A stretch of 64,000 nucleotides of DNA from Podarcis pityusensis (lineage: Eukaryota): NCBI GenBank assembly GCA_964106645.2, contig OZ067051.1; one strand, written 5' to 3'. Both the position numbers and the translations under genes were made by a program. Shown here one piece after another: positions 1,527-33,868 of this stretch (its first letter is position 1; each line of letters starts with the position of its first letter). The notes below the pieces were generated by a model. The model was not told the origin of the DNA, made no database searches, and worked only from the letters and a program-made list of their open reading frames with translations.

Positions 1527-4500
1527 GATGAAACAGGTGCCTACTTAATAGACAGAGATCCAACCTACTTTGGACCGGTGTTGAATTATCTCCGACACGG
1601 GAAACTGGTTATCAATAAAGACCTCGCAGAGGAAGGTATGTTTTGCTGTTTAGGAAAACTGCTTTAATGCTTGATCATAGCTGTGAAAAATCACTTTGGG
1701 TGTAATTGGTTTCACATATGCAAAGCAGGGCGGCCTGTTTGGGCTGGGCTAGTTTGTAGCATTGCTGTGCAACTTGCACTGGCCTTCAGATCTTGAGACC
1801 TGAATGATCCTTTAGAAACCAGGATTTGGCACCTGAAGTGCTGTGAGGTCACTGTTTTGGGGAGGTTGTTGGCTGGTGCATGACCTACCTGGAACACTCT
1901 CCTTGCTCCTGGGCTTTCTCTTTCTGCTTTGGTCTTGGAGCAGAGGCCTTGCCTTATCCTGACCAGGGCAACAGTTCAGAGGGACAGTCTGCCGCTTGGC
2001 CACGCAGTGCCTCTCAGGGCCTGTTTGTGACACAGACTTTCTCACATGTAGCTGGAGTTTTATGAGGCCCTCTTTTGACTTTGTGTTCCCCTCCAATCAG
2101 GTGTGCTTGAAGAAGCTGAATTCTACAACATCACATCCTTAATCAAACTTGTAAAGGACAAAATAAGGGAACGAGACAGCAAAATCTCACAGGTAGGACC
2201 TGCTAGTTTTTTTTAAATTTGATTTGTTTTTGAGGTAGCCTTGGCTTGACTTCATTTCATAATGTGTGGCTGTGTTTGGTGCCCAAACTGAGGGAATTAT
2301 GAGAAGTGGCTTCTGGTGGTATCAGATGCCATTTTTCCTTCCGTGAGTGAAATGTTTGTGCTTGTGGCAATGCCAAAAGGGAGGAGGGCAGCAGAGAGAT
2401 CTCAGCAGAGGCTGAGGCAAGTGGCTTTTTTGCACTCTGGAGCTCAGTGGTAACGGAGAAGGGACTCATTTGGAAGACATGATGGTTGAAACCAGTGGCC
2501 ATTCTTGGCCTGCTTCATCTTTCAGCTGTCTCTCTGTGTTTTTCACCAAAGGTGCCAGTCAAGCACGTTTACAGGGTGCTGCAGTGCCAGGAAGAGGAGT
2601 TGACTCAGATGGTCTCCACCATGTCTGATGGCTGGAAATTTGAGCAGGTAAGAGAACGGGAAGCAAACACTTCAATCTTTCAAGGACCATACAAACAAAC
2701 AAAAAAGCAGGCGAGAGGAGTGTGAGGGTTGGAATAATTGTGGGTGTTGTGGGCTTGGGTCCTGGAATGGTCAGGAAACTCAGACAAATGTTTGTACTTT
2801 TACAGCAGTTTGCCTGGTTGCTCAAAGTGCGTCACATATTAACTCTAGTTGTTTCTTAAAGTAACTCTGTAGAGAAGGACAATATCATTATTTCCCTACT
2901 GGGAATAAGCCTTTGGATGTGCCACTGAGCTTGTGCCTTAGGAGATGCTTGATTTGCAGCTTATACTCTCAGCCTGAGTTGCACCTTCTTGGCATTTCCA
3001 TGGGAAATCACACAGCAGGCACGAAGCACTTCATTCCTCCAGCACTGTGCCATGTGGCCATTTCAAGGCAAAGATCCATTTGCTCCACTTTTTATGTAGA
3101 GAGCTCTTGGAAACATAGTCCTCTGGGATTAACTCTGGTGGTGGTATGAACACTGTTACACACAAAAAACAGCTAAAAATTAGAAATTCTTGTAACTAGG
3201 CTCTAAACTGTAGCCATGTAGTTATGTTTGTCCACCAAGATGCCATGTCAGTGCCAGTGCTTCAGACCCTGCCATCAGTATTGCAGTACTGATCAGATCA
3301 CTGGTATTTGTTTGTACAAGCACCACAGCTCTCTGTGGTGGAAGATTCTCAGTTAATGGAGATTTGGAGAGCAGGAGGAATCAAGCAAAATCTTTTTGGC
3401 TCAGAACTGTCCCTCAACAGGCACTAGCTCTCCAAGAGCAAAGAAGAGTGTGGAATCCCCACAACTATGTCTCTGGGCCTGTATTTTGTACATCCATTGT
3501 GGATGGCTCTAGGCCTGCAGTCTTCCTTCTGTGCAACATTCTAGGAGTTTCACAGCTGTGTGTTTACACAGTCAGTGCTCTGTGTGGTCAGGATTGCTTA
3601 CACTCCATGTGAAACACTGACGCCTCCTATCTGCATAATGCCACACTCTCCTGCCTGAGCATGAATTATAGGAAGGGACAGGGGCCACTCTTAATGTTAG
3701 ATGCCCCTTGTGGGAACAGGAAGGAGAGAGCTCCACCTTTATTTAATAGCCCAGAATGTTGACAGTCAGAGCTTTGGTTGTAATCCCTTATTAAGTTCTG
3801 TCTGAAGCACAAGAACAGCCCCCCTCAGTTGTCTCTCTTTCCCACCTCCAGCTAGTCAGCATTGGATCTTCCTATAACTATGGGAATGAAGACCAGGCCG
3901 AATTCCTTTGTGTTGTTTCCAAGGAGCTGCACAACACCCCTTATGGCACGGCCAGTGAGCCCAGCGAAAAGGCAAAGGTGAGTCATCTTCAGGGTGGAGC
4001 AAGGCCCAGCTGCTGCCTTCCTCTGCCATCAAAGGTTGTTTGCCAGTTGCTACTAAGAAAGGAGCTTGCTTGGGTATCCTCTGCCCACCCTTTCTCAGGT
4101 GTCCAAGCACAAGACACACATGAGCACACTGAGCAGTTGTCGAAAAAGGAGGCTCCAACATCACACCTCTTATGCAGGAGCAACAGTAAACCAGCCTTGG
4201 GTGTGATAAAGCACTGAGGTGCCTTCATAAGCCATTTTAGGCTTCTGTCCATTTCAATGCTGTTAAACTCAACTGTATGAAGATACCCTGCCCCATGCAA
4301 AAAGAATCTCTAATGGTTATGGATGTCTAATCCTCAAACACCCAACTCCCAAAGAGCAGCTAAACCTTTTTTCTGGAAAATGATAGGTGCTATTCTAGGT
4401 GTGCCTGCATCTGGGTGCAACCCAAAAAACACAGACGCACCCACCAACGCGGAAACCTTCATTTATTGCAACCAAAAAATAAAGGCATATAAATCACATT

Positions 4501-7500
4501 TCAGTGTCAAGGCTAATTTATGTATGCCAACACAGGCATGCCTTGTTGGCCTTGAATATAAGCCACACTTTCCCCCCAAATTCCGACCGTGAAAAGTGTG
4601 GCTTATATTCGCGACCTTATGGTATGCAGCCAGGAGTGCGGGGCAAACAGCGGCAGGAATGCGGCAAAGTAGTGCCCGCCCTGCATGTAGTTCCCTATCT
4701 TCTCCCTCAAGACCAGGAAGGGAGAGAACAAGGAAGGGGAAAGGCCGCCGGCAATACAGCACAGCTCCCCCTTCCCAGTATGCAACCAGAAGCAGCGAGG
4801 ATGGGAGCGGCTTATATTCAAGTATATTTTCTTTTCCCCCCTCCAATTTTAAAGGTGCAGCTTATATTTGGGTCAATATGGTATATAGACTGGCAGGTGC
4901 TTTTGATTCTAACACACCCATAACTCGAAGCTGGAGAATTTAAGATGCCCTGTATTGGGAGAAGGAAAGGTAGGGTATCCCATGACTTCAGGGTTCTCTT
5001 TCTTTCTAGTTTCCAACTTGAGGTACCCAAAGTTTCATGGCCTTAAATCCAGCAAAAGCTTTCCTTATGAGTGCAGGGTGAAAGAGGCAAAGTGGAGCTC
5101 TGAGGAATTCCCCCCACCTACACAATTCAAAGCCTTGCTACTGAAATACACTTTTAGTGAAACTTGATCAATAATGTCAATGATGTTCTTACTTTCGAGA
5201 AAGTAGTGAGAGTCCGGTGTGTGGCTAATATCTCCTGTCCTGGGGCCGACGTGGAACCCAATTCCGGCTGTCAGCTCCTCTGAGTTAAACAGTCCCTTGA
5301 TCTACTCCTAGCTTTTCCATAAATCATGGCGAGAAATTTCCCTCTGGCCTGAGAAAGCACTCTGCTGACAGGACTATAATTAGAGGCCCTGCCCTTGGTT
5401 GCCAATGTTATTGTCTGGCTGCTCTGCTGCGGTTAAAATCAGGATGTCTGTGTTCATGTCATGTGGCATTCAGTAGAGACAAAAGGGTCAGAATTCCGGG
5501 GGATGGGGGAGAGAAAGGCAAAGGGGCATATGTCCCAAGATGCATCAGGCCTATGCCAGGCTACAGTCGACTGAGATGAACCAAGGTTCTGGTGTCATAC
5601 ACCATGCTTGCATAACTGTTAATTAACACAGTCGTGCCATGGGCATAAGTCAATGCCAGCCCTCTCTGCACATTTTTCATTGAGTTTTCAACATAAAATA
5701 CAATGAAAGCCAAACTAATCCAAAGAAGATAAATAGGCACACAAAAGAAGACAATAAAGAAGTAGAAAATGAAGAGAAGAAGAAAAAAACACAAGCTTCT
5801 CTATCATAATTATATCTTAACCTTTATTCCACACACAGACGGGTGAACCCTCCCACCTGGGAGCTTCCTCCTCTTCCCCCAGCCTCCCTCCCTGGGAGAT
5901 CCTCTCTGCCCTGCCCCTTGCGCTGGGCCCTTCATCTTCCATCCATCTGCACCTTTTTAAATGAAGCTGCTGCTGCTGTTGTCCAAGAAGCTGGCAAACA
6001 GTGTGCCAGGCAGCTTGGAAGCAAATGTGCGATTTCTGTATCACTGTCCTATTTCACTCTCTACCTTATGCTTTCCCTTGGCCTTCGGCTTTGTAAACAG
6101 ACAGCGAGATTGTAGAGTGATTGTTTCTGAAGGTGCAAATGATGTGCCAGATGCTATAGTTATGTTCAGAAAGATCTAAACTTCAAGATCCTTGCATGAA
6201 CTCCTGAATTAATGAAGAGGGCACAGATAGAAGGCAAGGTCTTTTGTGTTCATCTGGCACTCTTGCATTGTGTGGCATTTGCATGCTAGAGAGAAGTGGC
6301 CATGCTGGGATTTGTGCCTGTTGAGAAGGAGGAAGATGATGTTGGAGTTGGGTGAATTAGTAAAGGTGCAAGGCAGAGCCCACAGACACGAGAAAGCCCA
6401 GCTTCTTGCATCTTCACTAATGGCCAGTCATAGTTCAACAAGACCTCTGGCACACGAGGTGGAATCCAGGTGTCCTTGCAGGCATGAGTGCTCTCCAGCT
6501 CACACCCTGCAGAGCAGCTGCTAACCAGCTAAGAAACTGTTTGGATGTTTATCAGGAAAGGTTGTATGGGGGTGGGGTGATGGTGGCTGGGACACAGGGC
6601 AAAGGGACAGGCATCTCTCTGAGTTCTTTTGAAGAGAGAGGTGGCTCTTATGCACATCCTTAAGAGTTTGCTTTTAAATATATCAACAAAAAAACAACTC
6701 GGGCTCCCATGCCCAATTAAATCTTGATTAACCAAAAAAAGTTGGTTGGGGGAAGTTAGACAAAAGGAAGAGGGAATATGGAATTACAGCATCTGAGCCA
6801 GACACCCAGAAAGTTACTAAACTGCTTTCACATGAAAGCACATAAATTAGAAATACTGTTTTTGGTCTGTGGACGAAAGTTCAATTTCCAGTGTTTCCAG
6901 GCTAGTAATGTTTAGCCACCAAAAGGTGGGATTTGACCATAAACTATTTGCCTCTTCTGGATGTGAAACCTATGGGATGGTAACCAGTGACTTACTCTAG
7001 TGCAAGGTGAGGCACTCCATTTTCAACACACCCACCTATTGCAGCCCCGTGTGCCATGTCCCTTGCTTTGCCAGAGGGTCCTTGACACTGGATATGGGTG
7101 TTTTGCTGCTGCTTGGCAGCTTGACAGCTGTTTTCAGTGGTGGTTCGCCCTCTTCACACTGTGGTGGCTTTTTCCTTGCGCTGTAGCTGCTCTTCCAGCG
7201 GTTGACTGGCTGGCTGCACTGTTGGATTGCTTCTGTGATCAACTCGCAGAAGACTCTTCTGGGTCACCCTTCACAATTCAGGGGCTGGCTTGGACAGAAG
7301 TCTCTTGCTAAGACAAATCCAGGCCAGACTTTTCCGGATCTCTTTCCTCAATCTCCTTGTGTAGGGCAGCTGTTGAAGTGAATGGGCCAGTTGTCCAAAG
7401 ATCACCAAGCAGAAGCCTTGAATCCTCTCTCAGGCAGCCTGGGGACGTTTATACTTTACTCACCTTGCACTCTTTTCTTTTCCTTTCCTTCCTGCTCTTT

Positions 7501-10500
7501 GCACTTGCTTCATGAAACTCAGAGTGAAGACGAAGAGACGGATTACGATATGAATGACTCAGATTAAGTGTGAATGCCATGGTGAGCACTAGGACTTCAC
7601 CCACCTGCCTGTCCTCCCTCTGGCCTCTCCCACTGGTGCATCTTGTTTTGTGTTTGTAGTTGCTGCCTTGACCCTGTTGCTGGGTAGCCGTAGGCCCCTA
7701 GACTGCCTAGTGGTCCACTTGTGTTGGCTCCTTTACTTCCTGCTGCTGTTTCAGAGGAAATGTGTTTTTGTGGCTCTTCTCACAGGGAGGAAAGCAAGAC
7801 TCCACCAGGGAACCCATCTGCTTTTCACTTTAGAAAACCAGGGGAAGGTAGGGGCCAAAAGGTCTGAGTTGCAGTCGCCTTCCTATGATGGCCACAGACT
7901 TTGGGTTGCTTGCTCTTTTCTTTTTTAAACTAGTACGCCTTCAGGAATTCCGGATTGCATGCCATGAAACATAGTCTTCAATCAGATGTCTACAATTGCT
8001 TTCTCTTTAAGTTTGGGTGCAGACTTCACATCTGCTATGAGAGCAGGGGAAACAAATTGGAAAGAACTCTGTGTTTGTGGAGAAAGTGGATAGAGTTTCT
8101 TTCTCCCTCATAATGCTAGAATTCAGAAGGGTCATCAAGGAAGCTGCATGCTGGAAGATTCGGGATAGAGAAAAGGAAGTGCTTCCTAACACAGTGCACA
8201 CTCCTGCAAGATGATGGCTTTGAAAGAGGATTAGACAGATTTATGGAGGAGGAGGAGGAGGAGACTGTAGATAGCTATGAGGCCCATAGCCAGTATTGGA
8301 GGCAGTTGCTGAGGAGCGTAAGTGGGAAGATGGTGCACCTGTTGCACTGATATTCTGCTTGTGAGCTTCACAGTGGTTGATCACTGTGATAACAGGATAG
8401 TGGACTAGATCCAGCAGGTTCATTCCAAGAGGAGCCTCCTGCTCAAAAATAATCTTGGTTCTTCGCTTTCTGGAGGGAACAGCCTCATGTTTGCAGGCCA
8501 GCCTCAAGACTGGCCTAACGATTCAAAAAGAGCAGAAGGATTGTCACCATGGCTGCCAGAGCTGTAGCAGAAAGTTGGTCTGGTTCTTTTGCTGAGTGAG
8601 CAGACTATAAGTGTGTACACCTTCCCTGTTTTGCCATGATGAAAGGAGAAAGAGGTGGGGAGAAGGGTGCCAGGAGTCTGAGTCAGGAGGTGTGAACTTT
8701 TCCAATGACGGCTCTACCTGAAAGCAGCACTGGGATGGGCTGGAAATTCCCTGTGCTTCACACACCCGTAATGTGCCCTTCCTCCAAGTATATAAAGCCC
8801 TGCATTACTGTGTGAGGGACTGGCCTTGAGCTACCTAGTGGATTCCACAATCAAGGTCCTGAGTTGTTTTTAATGCAGCTGGTGTGTTGTTGACTCTTAT
8901 TTCCCCAGCGACAATCTAGTAAAAGCAAGGCATGTTGTGTTTTTCCCTGCTTGCCCTGAGTGGGGATTTGTCCCTGTTCAAGGCCAACACTATCCATTTT
9001 CATCAGTGCTGATGCAAAGAGGAGAAACAGGTGAGGATTTTACAGAGAAGGTCCCTGGGAATTCTTTGGATGAGGAAGAGGCCTAGTGGAAACTGCAGGT
9101 GTTGCTGGCCAAATGACGCAGTGCTGAAACAACAACACACACTGTGTTGGCTACAAGGGGTATTTTGCCCTGAGATGTTTTGGGTTCCCAACATGCCAGT
9201 GCTATTAAGCAGATAAGGGTCTTTAAAAATAATAATGATTCATGTTGTTATTTGAACTATCTTATCCTTGCTTGGTGAAGCCAAGGAGTGAGGCTCCTTG
9301 ATTCTCTGGCAGAGCCACTGAGTTCTCCTTAGTCCTCGTCCTCCTCAAGCAACACAGATAGTGGCCTGGAATGTGGCTCTTTGGTGCCCTTCCCAGGTCC
9401 TTCAGTTGAGGGCTGAAAAGTACCTCTGGTCTGTACTGCTCATCCCCAGGCGAGGAGGAAGGCAGCAGCTTATGGGCAACCGAGGCCAGCTGTGAAGTGT
9501 CAGAGTGCACAGCCTGCCACAGCAACACCTTTATTTCCTGTTCTTGGCCAAGGTGTCTCCAAAGTGACTTGGAGTTTTATGGTGGTTTCTTCTAGTAGTT
9601 GATGTCATCATCACCCAGGTTCCAGGCAGGGAGGAGGCAGCCAAAAGGGTTCTCCAACCCTGATACAGGGCAGGATACTTAATTGCTAGAAAAATCTATG
9701 AAGCCAGGATATTTACAAATATTTCCTTAAGAGTGTGAAGTTATACCATGGAACTATTAAATCTCAGTAACTAGATCCCAATTGCCGAAAATTTGATAGA
9801 GGGACCTTACAATTGTCTAAAAATGTGCTACACATTTCTGCCTCAAAGAGGAGAGTGAAGTGTACCCCCTCCCAATTAAAGTGCATAATCCTTCAATATT
9901 GTATATACGCAAACTAAGAGACTGATGACTGGACACACCGGAAAGTGGGGTATTAGTACATCTTTCTTTGGAAAAGGTTGACAGGCTGCACTGTATTAGA
10001 AACTTTAAATCTAGCACACTCGCCACTGAAGACATCCTCATTGCTTGAAAAACAATAAAATAAGCACTAAAGGGAGGGCATCAAAACTGGAGCAAAGAAA
10101 CCAGGCAGGCATGGTTCTGCAGCCTCAGGTTGTGATCTACAACTGTTGTTCACTTGAATTAACCTTTTGGAGGGGAGGGGGATTTCCAGTAGCTGCACCC
10201 CTACTTGCAGATTTCAAACGTCATACTAATAAATGCTATAGAGTCATAGAATTGTAGAGTTGGAAATGGATCTCCGAGGGTCATTTAGTCCAACTCCCTG
10301 CAATGCAGGAATCACAGCTGAAGAATCCCTGACAGATGGCCATCCAACCTCTGCTTGAAAACCTCCAAGGAAGAAGACCCCACACTTTCCGAGGGAGTCC
10401 ATTCTACTCTCAAACACTTCTTACCACTAATGCTTAGTGAGAACATAATCAGCAAAATGAGCTGTTGATTGCATAAATGGCCCATTTTTTAATCCACAAC

Positions 10501-10841
10501 TGTTCTTTTCAAACTGGGAGCTGGACCACTCACATACACTGGCCTAGTTGTACAGCCTAGCTAGTTTTGTAGGGAATGGGTGAGTCTGGCCTGTTGGCAG
10601 TTCCCTTAATTAACTTCCTATGTTTTGAGTAGCAGCTGACTGCCTAGTTCACCATCATGTGCCAAGGTGTCTTGCGTCAGAGAACAAAATCAGTTTGTTT
10701 GCCTGTTTTAAGGTTTTGCCTTCAAGAATGCCGGAGTCTTTCCACTGTGTGAGTCTTGCTGGAGAACCTTACCATGCAGAATCTCACCACTTTTTGTTTG
10801 TTTCCTTCCAGATCTTGCAGGAGCGAGGTTCAAGGATGTAA
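1527..10841 (+). CDS. KCTD5: BTB/POZ domain protein KCTD5 (CUL3 adaptor), 5'-partial, coding exons 2-6
   Basis: Exons 1527-1635, 2101-2192, 2552-2647, 3852-3977, 10812-10841, all AG/GT-flanked and in phase. They translate [150 protein letters not shown]. The residues and the neighbouring genes favour KCTD5 over KCTD2/17. Confidence 0.95.
4538..4885. mobile_element. Tc1/mariner-pogo-type non-autonomous DNA transposon (MITE)
   Basis: Imperfect terminal inverted repeats TGCCTTGTTGGCCTTGAATATAAGCCACAC / GTGCAGCTTATATTTGGGTCAATATGGTA, internal repeats of GCTTATATTC, and a TA at the right end. Confidence 0.65.
7523..7581 (+). CDS. KCTD5: Candidate alternative KCTD5 cassette exon encoding acidic C-terminus [14 protein letters not shown]
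   Basis: Long pyrimidine tract (about 7463-7510) then CAG acceptor at 7520-7522. Phase 0 matches exon 5, stop TAA at 7565-7567, donor ATG|GTGAGC after 7581, and 3 CpGs in 45 nt. Confidence 0.6.
8075..8420 (+). mobile_element. CR1 LINE 3' fragment (decayed)
   Basis: GATGGCTTTGAAAGAGGATTAGACAGATTTATGGAGG ([12 protein letters not shown]), followed by 3'UTR ending TGGACTAGATCCAGCAGG. Confidence 0.65.
10238..10425 (-). mobile_element. CR1 LINE 3' end
   Basis: ATAGAGTCATAGAATTGTAGAGTTGGAA...GGTCATTTAGTCCAAC is the reverse complement of the CR1 hairpin plus TTCTATGA tail. Confidence 0.75.
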
Positions 10842-24005: not shown

Positions 24006-26217
24006 TCAGGATTGGAACCTTGGTTTGTTTTTAGTTTTCTTCCACACAGCTGGCTTGCTGTGTGCAGCACATGTTGCATTCAGGTCCTCTGAGCTGCTAC
24101 TCTTTCCAGCATCATCCTCATCATCATCCTCATCAGATGTTTCTTCATCGGAACTTTCATCACCAGCAGTTATTCTATGAACAGAGATCAGCGTAATACA
24201 AACCAAGAAGGAAAAGGGAAATGAGACACTACTGCTATGTCAACTCAGAAGTAAAAGGTAAAGGTACTCCTGCCCGTGTCCGACTCTAGGGTTGTGCGCT
24301 CATCTCACTTAAGAGGCCGGGAGCCAGCGCTGTCCGCAGACACTTCCGGGTCATGTGGCCAGCGTGATGAAGCTGCTCTGGCGAGCCAGCACCAGCGCAG
24401 CACACAGAAACACCATTTACCTTCCCGCTATAAAGCGGTACCTATTTATCTACTTGCACTTAGGGGTGCTTTCGAACTGCTAGGTGGGCAGGAGCTGGGA
24501 CCGAAAGACGGGAGCTCACCCCGCCGCGGGGATTCGAACCGCCGACCATACGATTGGCAAGTCCTAGGCACTGAGGTTTTACCCACAGCGCCACCCGCGT
24601 CCCGCCAACTCAGAACTCGTTCCCTGGTGGGTTTAGGACTGCAAACCTGAAGCTCTTACCCTGAAGCTCTGGCAGGCCTGTTGGGATTAAAAAACTCTTT
24701 TCCAGAGTCAATATCAAAGGGGTCTGCGGAGAGAAAAAAGCAGGATGGTAAGCTATTGTTCCAAGTTTTTTCTTCTTCTCTAGAACCATATGTATGCAGT
24801 TACATCCCATCTTTCAGAATGCAAATCATTCCAAGATGACTTAAAAGTAAAATCAATATACAATAATTTACGAGTACAATGCCAATAATAATTGTCACAG
24901 GCAGTTGATGGCAGATAACTTGGGAGTGTGGGGTTGGTTTGTTAGTCCAGCTGGTGTAGTCATTGAGGGCAGGGGAGATGGGCAGAGACTTTAGTCTATA
25001 TTGACAATGAAGACCAGTATCACTGGCTGACAATGAGCTACTAGGCCTAACTCAAGGTGTTAGTGTTGCCATAACAAAGCTCTAAATGTTGAGTTGAGGT
25101 GATTTAATACTTGTATTTCACTTTTCCAACAAATATTGAACCATTGTTGTCTGATTACGTTGAGGGGGTTTGTGGGATTTTGGAGCAGTATTTTGTATAT
25201 TGTAGATACCAGCCCTTTGTTGTTAGGAGGAGGTTTTGAAGGTTGTCAAGGGCCTAGTTGCTGCTCATTTTACTACCAGATTGTTTAAAAGGGCACGTAC
25301 TTGGTGGTGTGTTAGCCCAGGGCATTTCGGTGTCCCCTAGTTTGTCTTGTATTTCTTGCATTGATATGGGTTATTTTTGTAGAAGTCTGCTAAGCGGTAT
25401 AAGCCTTTGGCTTGCCAGGTTTTTATCTAGAGGTTTTGTGGTGCGTGGTGGAATAGTGGGGTGGTGTGCCAGGGGGATTAGTGGGGATGGGGTTGAGGAC
25501 AGTTTACGTGCTTCTTCCTTCCATGCTTTAAGCATGGTCTGTGTGAACCTGTTTAGTGTTGTGGGGATTTTCCTTATTTTTTTGAGGAGGAATGGGTATG
25601 CTGTGGTGGAGGTATTTTCAAATATGTCTCTCTCCAGGTGTACTCATTGTTTTGTCTTGTCTTCTAGAATGTATGGGAGTATGTGGGACACTTGGTTGAT
25701 GATGTAGTATAGTTCTATGCTGGGGATTCCCCACGCTCCTAGGGGGCACCCAAGTTATGTGGCTGACTGATCCCATATGTTCATCCCAGAAGAATGGAGC
25801 AGCTTTCTGACTAAGCACCACTTGATTTCCTGACCATGGAGGTGCGGGGGAGACAAGGGCAGTGTCAAGGCATTGTTTAAGAAGACTCAAAGGTTCTCAG
25901 AAGTAAAAGTCAGTAGGTTCTTACCTATTTCTTCTTTTTCTTTTTCTTGGGCATGAGCCAGAAACTCTTGTTCAACTTTCAGTACTTCCTCTTCACAATT
26001 ACAGGCAGCATATTTCTCCAGGAGGTCTTTATTCAAATCAAGGAACACTTTTCCCCATTTAAATTTTTGTAAGAGGATTGTGGCAAGATCAGAGAATCCT
26101 AAAATAAAGACAAGAAAGTCTGCATTTTTAAAAAAATTACAAGGTACTTTGCAGGCGAAGAAGCTGTCCAGCCCCATACCTCCTAGTTGCTCGTGACATT
26201 CTGAAATAAATAAGTTT

Positions 26218-26260
<43 letters not shown>

Positions 26261-28637
26261 CTTCATTGGCATAAAAAGTGCATCGTATACATGGATCAAA
26301 ATACAACACAGTTAATGAAACATATTAAGCGGTACTTTAGGATAAAACTGTCCAGACATTGTGAGGTACGTTACGACCTATGGTGACAATTTTATAGCAT
26401 CACTCAGAAATCTTGCCACATTCTCCAATTAATCAGTTGGGACAGAGGCAGGTAGCTCAAAATAAAGACAGATGTCCCTCTTAAAAAGTAATTGAGCAAT
26501 GTGTACATTCGCATACACCTTGCTGTAAGCCTATAGCAGTGCTCAAAAGAAGGGAGGGAATGTGGAGAGAACAGACCCCAGATTCCTCAGCAGATGCCAC
26601 AGACCCCCAGAACATTTTCAAACTTGCCCTAGTCATCAAGGAAATAAGTTTGACACTAAGGCATGGCTGCACACAGACAGGGATGTATTCATACAGTCCA
26701 CTATACAACAAAGAATTAGATCTACAAGCTTTTCTTCCAGCCTCACCCACAATGTAGAAAGTAGCTGCAAATGCTTCCACACAGGAGAGTTTGCATGGCC
26801 GGCCGTAGTTCACTGGATTTGCAGCCACCAGAAAGGGCAGCAGGCGGAGATGGCTTCCCTTCATCTTGGCAAACGGCGTCTCATCCAGCTTTGCCCAAGA
26901 GCAGTCAATCACTGCAATTCCATTCTGAGCCACAATCTGTCTAAAAACACAGCAACAGCAATTTGAAACCAGGATGTTGCTGGTTTCTCACCCCACTGGA
27001 GCTGCTTTGGGATCCAGTTAGGATAGCAGATGTGAGTTGCTCAAGACCGCCAAGCCAGATTTCTCATGCGAAGACACTGGATGTGGCCAAGCTGAACAGA
27101 ACAAATCTGAATAATCGACCCTAAGCTGTGAAGTTTCATCAGCTCACTAGCTAGTGGAAGCATCCACTTGAACAAAGCCCAAAAAGAACACTGGCTGGGA
27201 ACGCACCTCAACCCTGAAGTATCAGTCTTACAGGCTCCACATACTGGCCCTACACATGAGCACTAAGAAGAAAGCTCTGTAGCTGGACCAGCCTGTTCTT
27301 ACAGATGCCTGAGGGAAGCCTGCAAGCAGGGCATGAACACAACAGCACTCATTCAGAGGCAGCAATGGAGACAGAACAAAACAATTATGGCTAGAAGCCA
27401 CTGATAGGCTTGTCATGAATCTGTCTAATCCTCAGTGAAAATCATTCAAGTTGATGGCTATCACTGCCTCTCAGTGAGCAAATTCCAGAGTTTATTACCA
27501 GCTGTGTGAAGAGCTGCTTTCTTTTGTCTGCCAACATTCCCGTTGAGTGGCCCTGAGGTAAAGCATGATTAAAGGTCCTGCTTTTTCCCCTCCACCGGGC
27601 AGAAACCCTCCTCCTGTCTTTGCTGGCTTCCCCTTTCCTCTAGATGCCTGTAAATACAATCAGGCAAGTATCTAAAAAGGAAGTATGGGCTTGACCTTTA
27701 TTGATATTAATACATGTTCCATATTTTCTTTTAACACTATCAATATGCGTAAGAGATTCAGGAACTAAGTATTTACCATCTCAAAGGAATGGCCAGGCTA
27801 CCCAGAAAAGGCAATCATATAAAGCATTATCAGGTATCCTCGCTGACAGGAGAGAAGCAACACACACAAATTTCTGCTGGGGATCACCTCTTTCTGTGAT
27901 GTATGTATGATGTTTTGGGGGGTGGTCTTGAGCTACAGGGTAGGCTATTTCAAAGTCTGTAAGGGCTTGCACACCAGTGTTTTGGGTTGCTCCTCCCTCC
28001 TGCATGTGGTGAGTGAGCACCCTGTTGCAACAGTTTAATAAAGATCAGGCTTACTAGCTGCTTTGCTTCTCAATATTCTCTGCTTGGCTTCTGTTATTTT
28101 CTCCTACCGATAGAGAACCTACATAAGGACTCTATACGGGCTCTGGATACCCCATAAGGGAAAAGGGAGCAGTTTTTTCTTCTAACACCTTCCTAGCTCC
28201 GCCGGCCCCGCTCACCTGTCTGCGGGGGAGACGAAGCGGGTGGCGGCGGGGCTGAGGATGACGCCTCCGAAGCGCTGTCCGAGGCGCAGCGTCCGCACCA
28301 GCCCCTTCCTCGCCAGCCGCCGCCCTGTGCAGCGCCGCGGGTCGCAGTGGCCCAAGTCCCACATGGCCAGCGGGGGAGAAGGCGAGGCCCGGACCTCGCC
28401 GCATCCCCGGACGCTGCCGCTACCCGGCTCCGGCTCGGACGACGACGGCTCGGGCGACCCCGCCGCCGCGCCCTTGACGGGGGAGGAGGAAGAGTGGCCG
28501 CGGAGCGGGTCCCCGCCCAAGATGGGGCCGGAGTCGCCGCCGGGGCCTTCCTCATCCTCCGCCTCCGCGAAGGCCTCGAGAGGGGGTCCCGGCCGGGGCT
28601 GCCGCTGTCGCCGTTGCTGCTGCCGCTTCCGCCCCAT
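24006..28637 (-). CDS. TSR3: 18S rRNA aminocarboxypropyltransferase TSR3, complete (340 aa)
   Basis: Exons 28637-28216, 26940-26747, 26098-25925, 24723-24660, 24174-24006 total 1023 nt. Motifs [71 protein letters not shown] and an acidic tail are present. Confidence 0.97.
24251..24603 (-). mobile_element. Sauria SINE, near full length, in the TSR3 last intron
   Basis: AAAGGTAAAGGT tail, body CCTATTTATCTACTTGCAC...TTCGAACTGCTAGG, B box GGATTCGAACC, 5' end GGGACGCGGGTGGCGCTGTGG on the - strand. 10-bp TSD CAACTCAGAA (24241-24250, 24606-24615). Confidence 0.92.
25075..25810 (-). mobile_element. L1-clade LINE ORF2 C-terminal fragment (decayed) in TSR3 intron 3
   Basis: Minus-strand translation gives [11 protein letters not shown]...LERDIFE...TMLKAWK...[12 protein letters not shown]...IRQQW with stops and frameshifts. 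The - strand is strongly A-rich. Confidence 0.65.
26219..26260. repeat. (TCTA)n microsatellite
   Basis: Seen directly, about 10 units. Confidence 0.95.
27270..27530 (-). mobile_element. CR1 LINE 3' fragment (decayed)
   Basis: CATGAATCTGTCTAATCCTC...TTCAAGTTGATGGCTATCACT...TGTGTGAAGAG; same family as 55-545. Confidence 0.65.
27748..28187 (+). mobile_element. Possible solo LTR in TSR3 intron 1
   Basis: About 440 bp ending TTCTAACA with imperfect inverted start CGTAAGA and an internal AATAAA (28037-28042) followed by a T-rich U5-like tract. No TSD found. Confidence 0.4.
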
Positions 28638-28738
28638 CTCCTCGTGCACCAAAGGGAGAAGAGGCGGGTAGAGCGGCTCCCTGACGCCCCGGAAGAGCAA
28701 CCCCTGCAGGCGCTTCCGGGTCTCGCCGGAGACCGAAG

Positions 28739-33868
<5,130 letters not shown>

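Follow-up and report, generated by a model that had tools for sequence, protein, structure and literature searches.

An ancient cassette exon of KCTD5 that exchanges a basic Gβγ-contacting tail for an acidic one, and its possible role in photoreceptors

Introduction

The last intron of KCTD5 in Podarcis pityusensis contains a 59-nt segment with the outline of an exon, which would end the reading frame early and give the protein a different C terminus. The locus raises the question whether this segment is used, in which cells, under whose control and with what consequence for the CUL3-KCTD5 ubiquitin ligase. The window analyzed here is a stretch of 64,000 nucleotides from contig OZ067051.1 (assembly GCA_964106645.2), the + strand of which carries the 3′ portion of KCTD5. 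From its letters alone, it had been proposed earlier (the original prediction) that positions 7523 to 7581 form a cassette exon that escapes nonsense-mediated decay (NMD), replaces the basic tail ILQERGSRM by an acidic, phosphorylatable one and has TGC motifs in its pyrimidine tract of the kind bound by SRRM4.

In short, the segment is almost certainly a real KCTD5 exon. Our preferred explanation, which we hold to be correct by a narrow balance of probability, is that this ancient cassette puts an acidic tail in place of the basic one that binds Gβγ, that it is likely included chiefly in photoreceptors, where Musashi proteins control it, and that free Gβγ (likely transducin βγ) is, by prediction, less strongly ubiquitylated and turned over as an outcome. 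The exon itself is known and is retina-restricted in three species. The retina splicing papers PMC9303857, PMC6952364 and PMC4991804 name it in tables and primer lists, which do not discuss its protein product or assign a function, and the papers on the KCTD5 protein deal with the 234-residue form. No paper on the function of an acidic-tail KCTD5 isoform was found in the full-text literature, a body of text with most subscription journals outside its coverage. What appears to be new here is the exon in this genome, its tracing to sharks and a mechanism for the protein, which was not found stated elsewhere.

Results

KCTD5 exon boundaries in the window (2192/2552, 2647/3852 and 3977/10812) were taken from spliced contigs of related organisms. 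Four of 24 runs were used, consisting of contigs only, with RNA as the guessed source, from three related organisms (two runs represent the same organism) and from unknown tissue. The junction 3977/10812, which skips the segment, was present in all four runs, and no further junction between 10812 and 11900 occurred among the joints listed. The cassette is in phase with the exon at 3852-3977, and its length, acceptor, stop codon, donor and 14-nt gap between stop and donor are all as originally predicted (Table 1). The preceding exon measures 126 nt, which is also the length of the exon upstream of the mouse Kctd5 retina event.

The acceptor is preceded by a pyrimidine-rich tract (pyrimidine fraction 0.76 at −40 to −4), with the closest upstream AG at −87; TCTT and CTCT elements in this region are possible PTBP sites, judging from their sequence. 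Using a simple splice-site filter, 14 acceptor-like sites were found in the last intron (6,834 nt), two of which pair with a good donor within 200 nt, the cassette being one of these. A DNA search showed the stretch to be single copy in the genome. Codons retaining CpG had been pointed out before, and indeed the 42 coding nucleotides hold three CpG compared with 0.010 per nt in the intron (P ∼0.01). The tract and its TGC motifs were likewise confirmed, but at least three TGC near the acceptor were also found at 8 of the 113 acceptor-like sites of the window, so that those of the cassette are only modestly unusual; a dinucleotide shuffle fixes the TGC count and is uninformative on this point.

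Contigs of the four runs were also compared with the window for substitutions. In each run, substitutions were least frequent, among the listed intronic pieces, in the one lying over the cassette or over the flank downstream of it (0.7-1.2% vs 2.2-4.0%), with one-sided Fisher P values of 0.064, 0.007, 0.029 and 0.015 by run. Exonic pieces were excluded from this comparison and gaps were ignored, 10-13 gap letters being present in three of the four pieces.

Table 1. Features of the KCTD5 cassette and its surroundings (window coordinates)
Feature	Position	Strand	Description
Penultimate coding exon	3852..3977	+	126 nt, ends ...EPSEKAK, phase 0, AAG/GT; codes for the first four switch-helix residues (EKAK)
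Acceptor region	7450..7522	+	Branch-point candidates at −72 to −61, pyrimidine tract, TGC at −30/−23/−17, CAG acceptor 7520-7522
Cassette exon	7523..7581	+	59 nt, phase 0: 42 nt coding (14 residues), TAA 7565-7567, 14 nt 3′ untranslated region (UTR)
Candidate weaker donor	7570..7575	+	GT (AGT/GTGAAT); its use would shorten the exon to 47 nt, as in chicken
Donor	7582..7587	+	GTGAGC (ATG/GTGAGC, 7581/7582), 7/9 consensus positions
Six BUAG motifs	7590..7710	+	+9, +76, +104, +110, +118, +127; predicted Musashi enhancer
Last exon, coding part	10812..10841	+	ILQERGSRM*, equal to human residues 226-234, the greater part of the switch helix; 3′ UTR upon cassette inclusion

An exon at this place is catalogued in three species. 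The mouse event MmuEX0025234 (mm10 chr17:24053272-24053330, 59 nt; reverse transcription PCR primers published) has a percent spliced in (PSI) value of 74 in rods, 17 in olfactory neurons, 3.8 in Purkinje cells and below 2 in all other columns with data (PMC6952364). Following the 126-nt exon, it is included at a PSI of 0.51-0.70 in wild-type retina vs 0-0.14 in photoreceptor-less Aipl1−/− retina, and the Kctd5 mRNA level is equal in retina with and without photoreceptors (log2 fold change 0.10, false discovery rate 0.78; PMC4991804). PSI values in retina vs other tissue are 17 vs 0.12 in human, 50 vs 0.07 in mouse and 20 vs 0.07 in chicken, and the exon is classed as a retina-enriched long exon (RetLONG); in non-retinal neural samples, values are 0.04, 0.36 and 0.03, respectively (PMC9303857). 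The human event HsaEX1018507 (hg38 chr16:2705135-2705193) again measures 59 nt, the chicken event GgaEX2015417 47 nt (PMC9303857), and the human exon is marked as identified in retina long reads (PMC11450717). For mouse brain, a single KCTD5 transcript was reported (bioRxiv 10.1101/104893). The cassette of the window is in the same gene and the same position, between the 126-nt exon and the last exon, shares its 59-nt length with MmuEX0025234 and HsaEX1018507, and codes for a peptide homologous to the tails of other mammals, which makes it their orthologue, although the chicken event is shorter and placental tails have diverged in the middle. The donor position may have moved between lineages (47 vs 59 nt) without altering the peptide. 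Judging from these orthologues, enrichment in the retina is to be expected in Podarcis pityusensis with good confidence.

An in-frame stop upstream of a junction could mark a poison exon, lowering KCTD5 in photoreceptors through NMD or through an unstable protein. As a rule, NMD requires the stop to precede the last junction by more than 50-55 nt. Here the distance is 14 nt, or 2 nt in the 47-nt form, and NMD escape, which had been part of the original prediction, is further favored by steady-state inclusion of 74% in mouse rods with total Kctd5 mRNA unchanged and by the strong conservation of the peptide. Of two human retina KCTD5 open reading frames with a novel C terminus, one is flagged for NMD (PMC11450717); this record lends the poison exon some support and counts against a productive isoform, although neither frame is assignable to the cassette. 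Overall, a poison exon is very unlikely. The cassette mRNA would instead escape NMD, and translation of the isoform is highly probable.

Conservation of the peptide was studied in stored proteins, collected with the 126-nt exon peptide as query, by tail-weighted searches and by cluster look-ups. This resulted in 379 proteins, 373 of which have the KAK junction. Tail counts in this set show range, not frequency, since the proteins are mostly automatic models, are non-independent and were listed at up to 15 members per cluster. An acidic tail follows KAK in 58 of the 373 proteins, in 19 variants, and is identical to the window peptide in 21. Identity over all 14 residues was found in database isoforms of birds, turtles, three frogs, gar and sturgeon. 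Near-identical tails differ mostly by one D-to-E exchange in teleosts, by Y-to-S in bichir, by Y-to-C in catshark and girdled lizard, and by M-to-V in anoles, so that the catshark tail matches at 13 of 14 residues. Models of the KCTD5 'isoform X1' type (XP_056358963.1, XP_014014410.1, XP_038676869.1) have the same or nearly the same tail after KAK, but are automatic, with no function attached. Because sharks carry the exon, it was present in the ancestor of jawed vertebrates.

Eighteen of the 19 distinct tails are 14 residues long; in these, S1 and S13 are invariant, and D3, E4, T6 and D12 are each found in 17. An ungapped alignment of the 14-residue tails was obtained for primates, a rodent, carnivores, whales, sheep and zebra. 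In placental mammals the tail retains its length, its two ends (S-D/E-D-E-D/E-T...D-S-D) and its acidity, while the middle varies, as in SDDEDEGHPGSGSD (baboon, macaque) and SDDEETGPDGDDSD (cats). The central DYDMN, nearly invariant in non-mammals, is free in placentals, and the sequences suggest either a lost partner contact or relaxed constraint. Among the 15 members listed of a marsupial cluster of 24, no acidic tail was present, and no sequence from jawless fish was encountered. The exchange takes the charge from +2 for the basic segment to −7 for the acidic one (−4 to −7 in mammals), and two S/T-x-x-D/E motifs of the casein kinase 2 (CK2) type, SEDE and TDYD, are part of the tail.

Several turtle, crocodilian and bird database models fuse PDPK1 to KCTD5, a number of them with the acidic tail end, and others fuse KCTD5 to a UBC domain. 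These fusions reflect either read-through transcription or annotation artefacts.

The paralogues were searched in the same genome. In the KCTD2-like gene, no such exon was found in the 1.7-kb last intron, and the KCTD17-like gene has no sequence homologue of the cassette in the ∼30 kb after the KAK exon (best score 19 vs 76 for self). KCTD17 does have an acidic 45-residue exon (STEEDLEEEEQ...) after KAK at locus positions 2827-2964 and a basic 9-residue exon (LLQTRCLRI*) downstream at 5054-5083, and bird KCTD17 models carry both kinds of tail. As in KCTD5, tail choice in KCTD17 thus takes place after the same KAK junction, and human KCTD17 isoforms differ in Gβγ binding (PMC10348674; bioRxiv 10.1101/104893). 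Beyond the initial Ser and the acidity, the longer acidic exon of KCTD17 has no homology to that of KCTD5 (BLOSUM62 score 8 vs 76 for self); these two sources, in the parts bearing on KCTD17 tails, report no retina specificity, and the acidic tail was not matched to a tested human isoform. The shared layout is due either to common origin or to convergence.

Which part of the protein is exchanged follows from the human structure. Human KCTD5 (234 residues) has two Gβ contact patches, the second being the C-terminal tail, whose basic switch helix (222-234) lies on the Gβ acidic hot spot D228/D246 (PMC11047111). KCTD5 binds Gβ1-4 (PMC10348674), likely only as free Gβ (PMC11047111). Since human KCTD5 ends in the same tail as the window, the splice junction falls at residues 225/226, and mapping onto the published cryo-electron microscopy description places the exchange at residues 226-234, 9 of the 13 switch-helix residues. 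A comparable loss is provided by the deletion L209*, in which the switch helix is likewise missing with the BTB domain and C-terminal domain intact: affinity drops ∼10-fold from an already micromolar value, ubiquitylation is reduced but not abolished, and Gβ levels are not restored in knockout cells (PMC11047111). Unlike the cassette, L209* is artificial, lacks residues 209-234 and adds no acidic segment. In AlphaFold2 monomers of the two turtle isoforms, a helix at 219-228 was seen in the canonical form and none after residue 204 in the acidic form; this fits the exchange, but both models are of low confidence (mean predicted local distance difference test score 40.7 canonical, 47.3 acidic) and carry little weight.

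Concerning control of inclusion, six UAG, all of the BUAG form, are located at +9 to +127 downstream of the cassette, where the rate of the intron itself predicts 1.4. The Poisson P is 0.003 for 130 nt, 0.006 for 150 nt and 0.022 for 200 nt, and 0.09% of the 130-nt windows in the 64 kb hold six; these widths were picked after inspection, and the P of 0.02 at 200 nt tempers the enrichment. BUAG tops the MSI1 motifs from enhanced crosslinking and immunoprecipitation (PMC9509328), and Musashi-dependent exons have been characterized in the literature by UAG clusters no more than 200 nt downstream, with synergy from low PTBP1 and a need for a very high MSI1 level (PMC9303857, PMC6952364). For mouse, the Kctd5 exon was reported absent after Msi1 knockdown or with dominant-negative Msi1 (authors' reply in the peer-review file of PMC6952364). 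Known Musashi-dependent photoreceptor exons (Ttc8 2A, Cc2d2a, Cep290, Cacna2d4, Slc17a7) are likewise photoreceptor-restricted with a downstream intronic UAG cluster (PMC4991804, PMC9509328); they differ in being microexons without knockout phenotype, whereas the KCTD5 exon contains a stop codon and exchanges a helix that has been mapped as substrate-binding.

SRRM4 had been suggested as the regulator, and a pan-neural exon driven by SRRM3/4 would agree with three TGC within 30 nt of the acceptor and a pyrimidine tract set back from the AG. Against this, SRRM3 or SRRM4 overexpression moved the human exon by −0.52 to +1.3 PSI points, flat in eight of eight cell-line tests (PMC9303857), and Srrm4 is low in photoreceptors (PMC4991804). 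In addition, UGC enrichment was described chiefly for exons no longer than 50 nt and the microexon class spans 3-27 nt (PMC9303857); at 59 nt the cassette exceeds the latter, though it has UGC near the acceptor, at a load equalled by the 8 sites mentioned above. SRRM4 is an unlikely driver because the SRRM tests were flat and neural inclusion outside the retina is near zero, and we regard the pan-neural reading as highly improbable. Musashi is the likelier regulator, and dependence of the cassette on it is reasonably probable.

Two further observations were made on the contigs. Unspliced pieces of low depth extend over much of intron 5 in its 3′ half (window 5900-10840), two of them crossing into the last exon; possible causes are slow splicing or retention of intron 5, or DNA in the runs. 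Very deep cover was present on high-copy repeat fragments at 10240-10390, 4480-4900 and ∼8245, probably interspersed repeats. Downstream of KCTD5, on the − strand, exon peptides at ∼25900-29000 and 35000-62500 resemble genes that we take to be TSR3 and an IQGAP gene.

Discussion

The original prediction holds as far as the conserved acidic-tail cassette is concerned, while SRRM4 control is not supported. It did not include the restriction to retina, the UAG cluster, how far back the exon is conserved or what the replaced tail does in the structure. Combining these, the following mechanism is proposed. Musashi, reported as required in mouse and suggested for Podarcis pityusensis by the UAG cluster, would promote inclusion in photoreceptors, being insufficient alone in cell lines and probably helped by low PTBP1. 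The translated protein would still bind CUL3, assemble into pentamers and have the main Gβ patch, but would lose the second patch, with an effect as in L209* or stronger via charge repulsion. Assuming equal translation and random assembly, and ignoring KCTD2 and KCTD17, 74% inclusion leaves ∼1.3 canonical helices of five per pentamer. Transducin Gβ1γ1 is very abundant in rods and in light is freed and moves to the inner segment, and photoreceptor pentamers of this composition would spare a large pool of light-released Gβγ. That the cassette isoform lowers Gβγ binding or turnover is somewhat favored, and the simplest reading of the exon may be a cell-type brake on Gβγ turnover.

Several results weigh against this explanation. 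Regarding regulation, constitutive exons 2 and 3 also show four and three UAG in 150 nt, and MSI1 overexpression alone failed to induce the human exon in both tests (−0.75 and −0.26; PMC9303857), a flat result that may be due to the need for a very high MSI1 level combined with low PTBP1. In 11 of the 12 supplements of the Msi1/2 knockout paper PMC9509328, 'kctd5' had no matches, and no zebrafish row for kctd5 was found in 12 of the 18 supplements holding the retina-exon data of PMC9303857, where human, mouse and chicken are listed. Among 15 joints listed of 29 in the four contig runs of unknown tissue, the inclusion junction was absent, which is no evidence of absence. Regarding function, the KCTD5 tail was described as being 'of secondary importance', and L209* retains part of the activity although it removes more than the cassette does (PMC11047111); the turtle structure predictions are too weak to use, and no protein-level evidence for the tail peptide was seen. 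Finally, near-invariance of all 14 residues outside mammals exceeds what merely breaking a helix would need.

Given this invariance, a new binding partner is a serious possibility. The acidic tail could mainly be a docking motif for a basic-surfaced photoreceptor partner, either a new CUL3 substrate or a sorting adaptor, by which the ligase is redirected or relocalized; such a role is compatible with the preferred explanation. PACS proteins, sorting adaptors that read CK2-phosphorylated acidic clusters, are an example. Docking would agree with a tail that is the same in gar, sturgeon, frogs, turtles, birds and this genome and nearly so in catshark, with the length and both ends kept even in mammals, and with the two S/T-x-x-D/E motifs. 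Rods and olfactory neurons are both ciliated sensory neurons. In mouse, it is these two cell types that clearly include the exon (PMC6952364). The partner is only hypothetical, though, DYDMN drifts freely in placentals while acidity stays, as expected if charge matters, and RNA-level splicing constraint could account for part of the invariance. As the main role of the tail, docking is possible but rather unlikely. When inspected by eye, FFAT, LIR and YxxΦ motifs were rejected for the tail, the needed hydrophobic positions being missing and the Tyr being lost in mammals.

Alternatively, the exon could be a tolerated by-product of the photoreceptor Musashi programme, conserved for RNA-level reasons and of little cellular effect. 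Knockouts of five other photoreceptor-specific exons, and a triple knockout, were without phenotype (PMC9509328), which speaks for a by-product and against a brake on Gβγ turnover; inclusion in bulk human retina is just 17% (PMC9303857), and KCTD2 could contribute canonical tails in mixed pentamers (PMC10348674). Frame, stop position and acidity, however, are kept from shark to mammal, exchanges outside mammals are mostly of the D/E type, and the segment that is exchanged has been mapped as contacting the substrate (PMC11047111), which renders a mere by-product improbable.

A broader form of the preferred explanation is put forward tentatively, as one that may well prove wrong. Since the split of sharks and bony fish, jawed vertebrates would have kept a photoreceptor switch that flips the charge of a substrate-gripping helix, turning CUL3-KCTD5 into a low-affinity Gβγ holder or a ligase for other targets and leaving light-released transducin βγ undegraded; with the acid/base toggle also present in KCTD17, this would perhaps be a general control of KCTD5/17 ligases.

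The combined picture bears on two questions. One is by what means photoreceptors could keep their large pool of free transducin βγ from being degraded, given that a ligase acting on Gβγ is widely expressed. The other is whether any exon specific to photoreceptors serves a clear biochemical function; the five knockouts (PMC9509328) did not demonstrate one. The invariant non-mammalian tail, together with its drift in placentals, indicates which residues are of interest.

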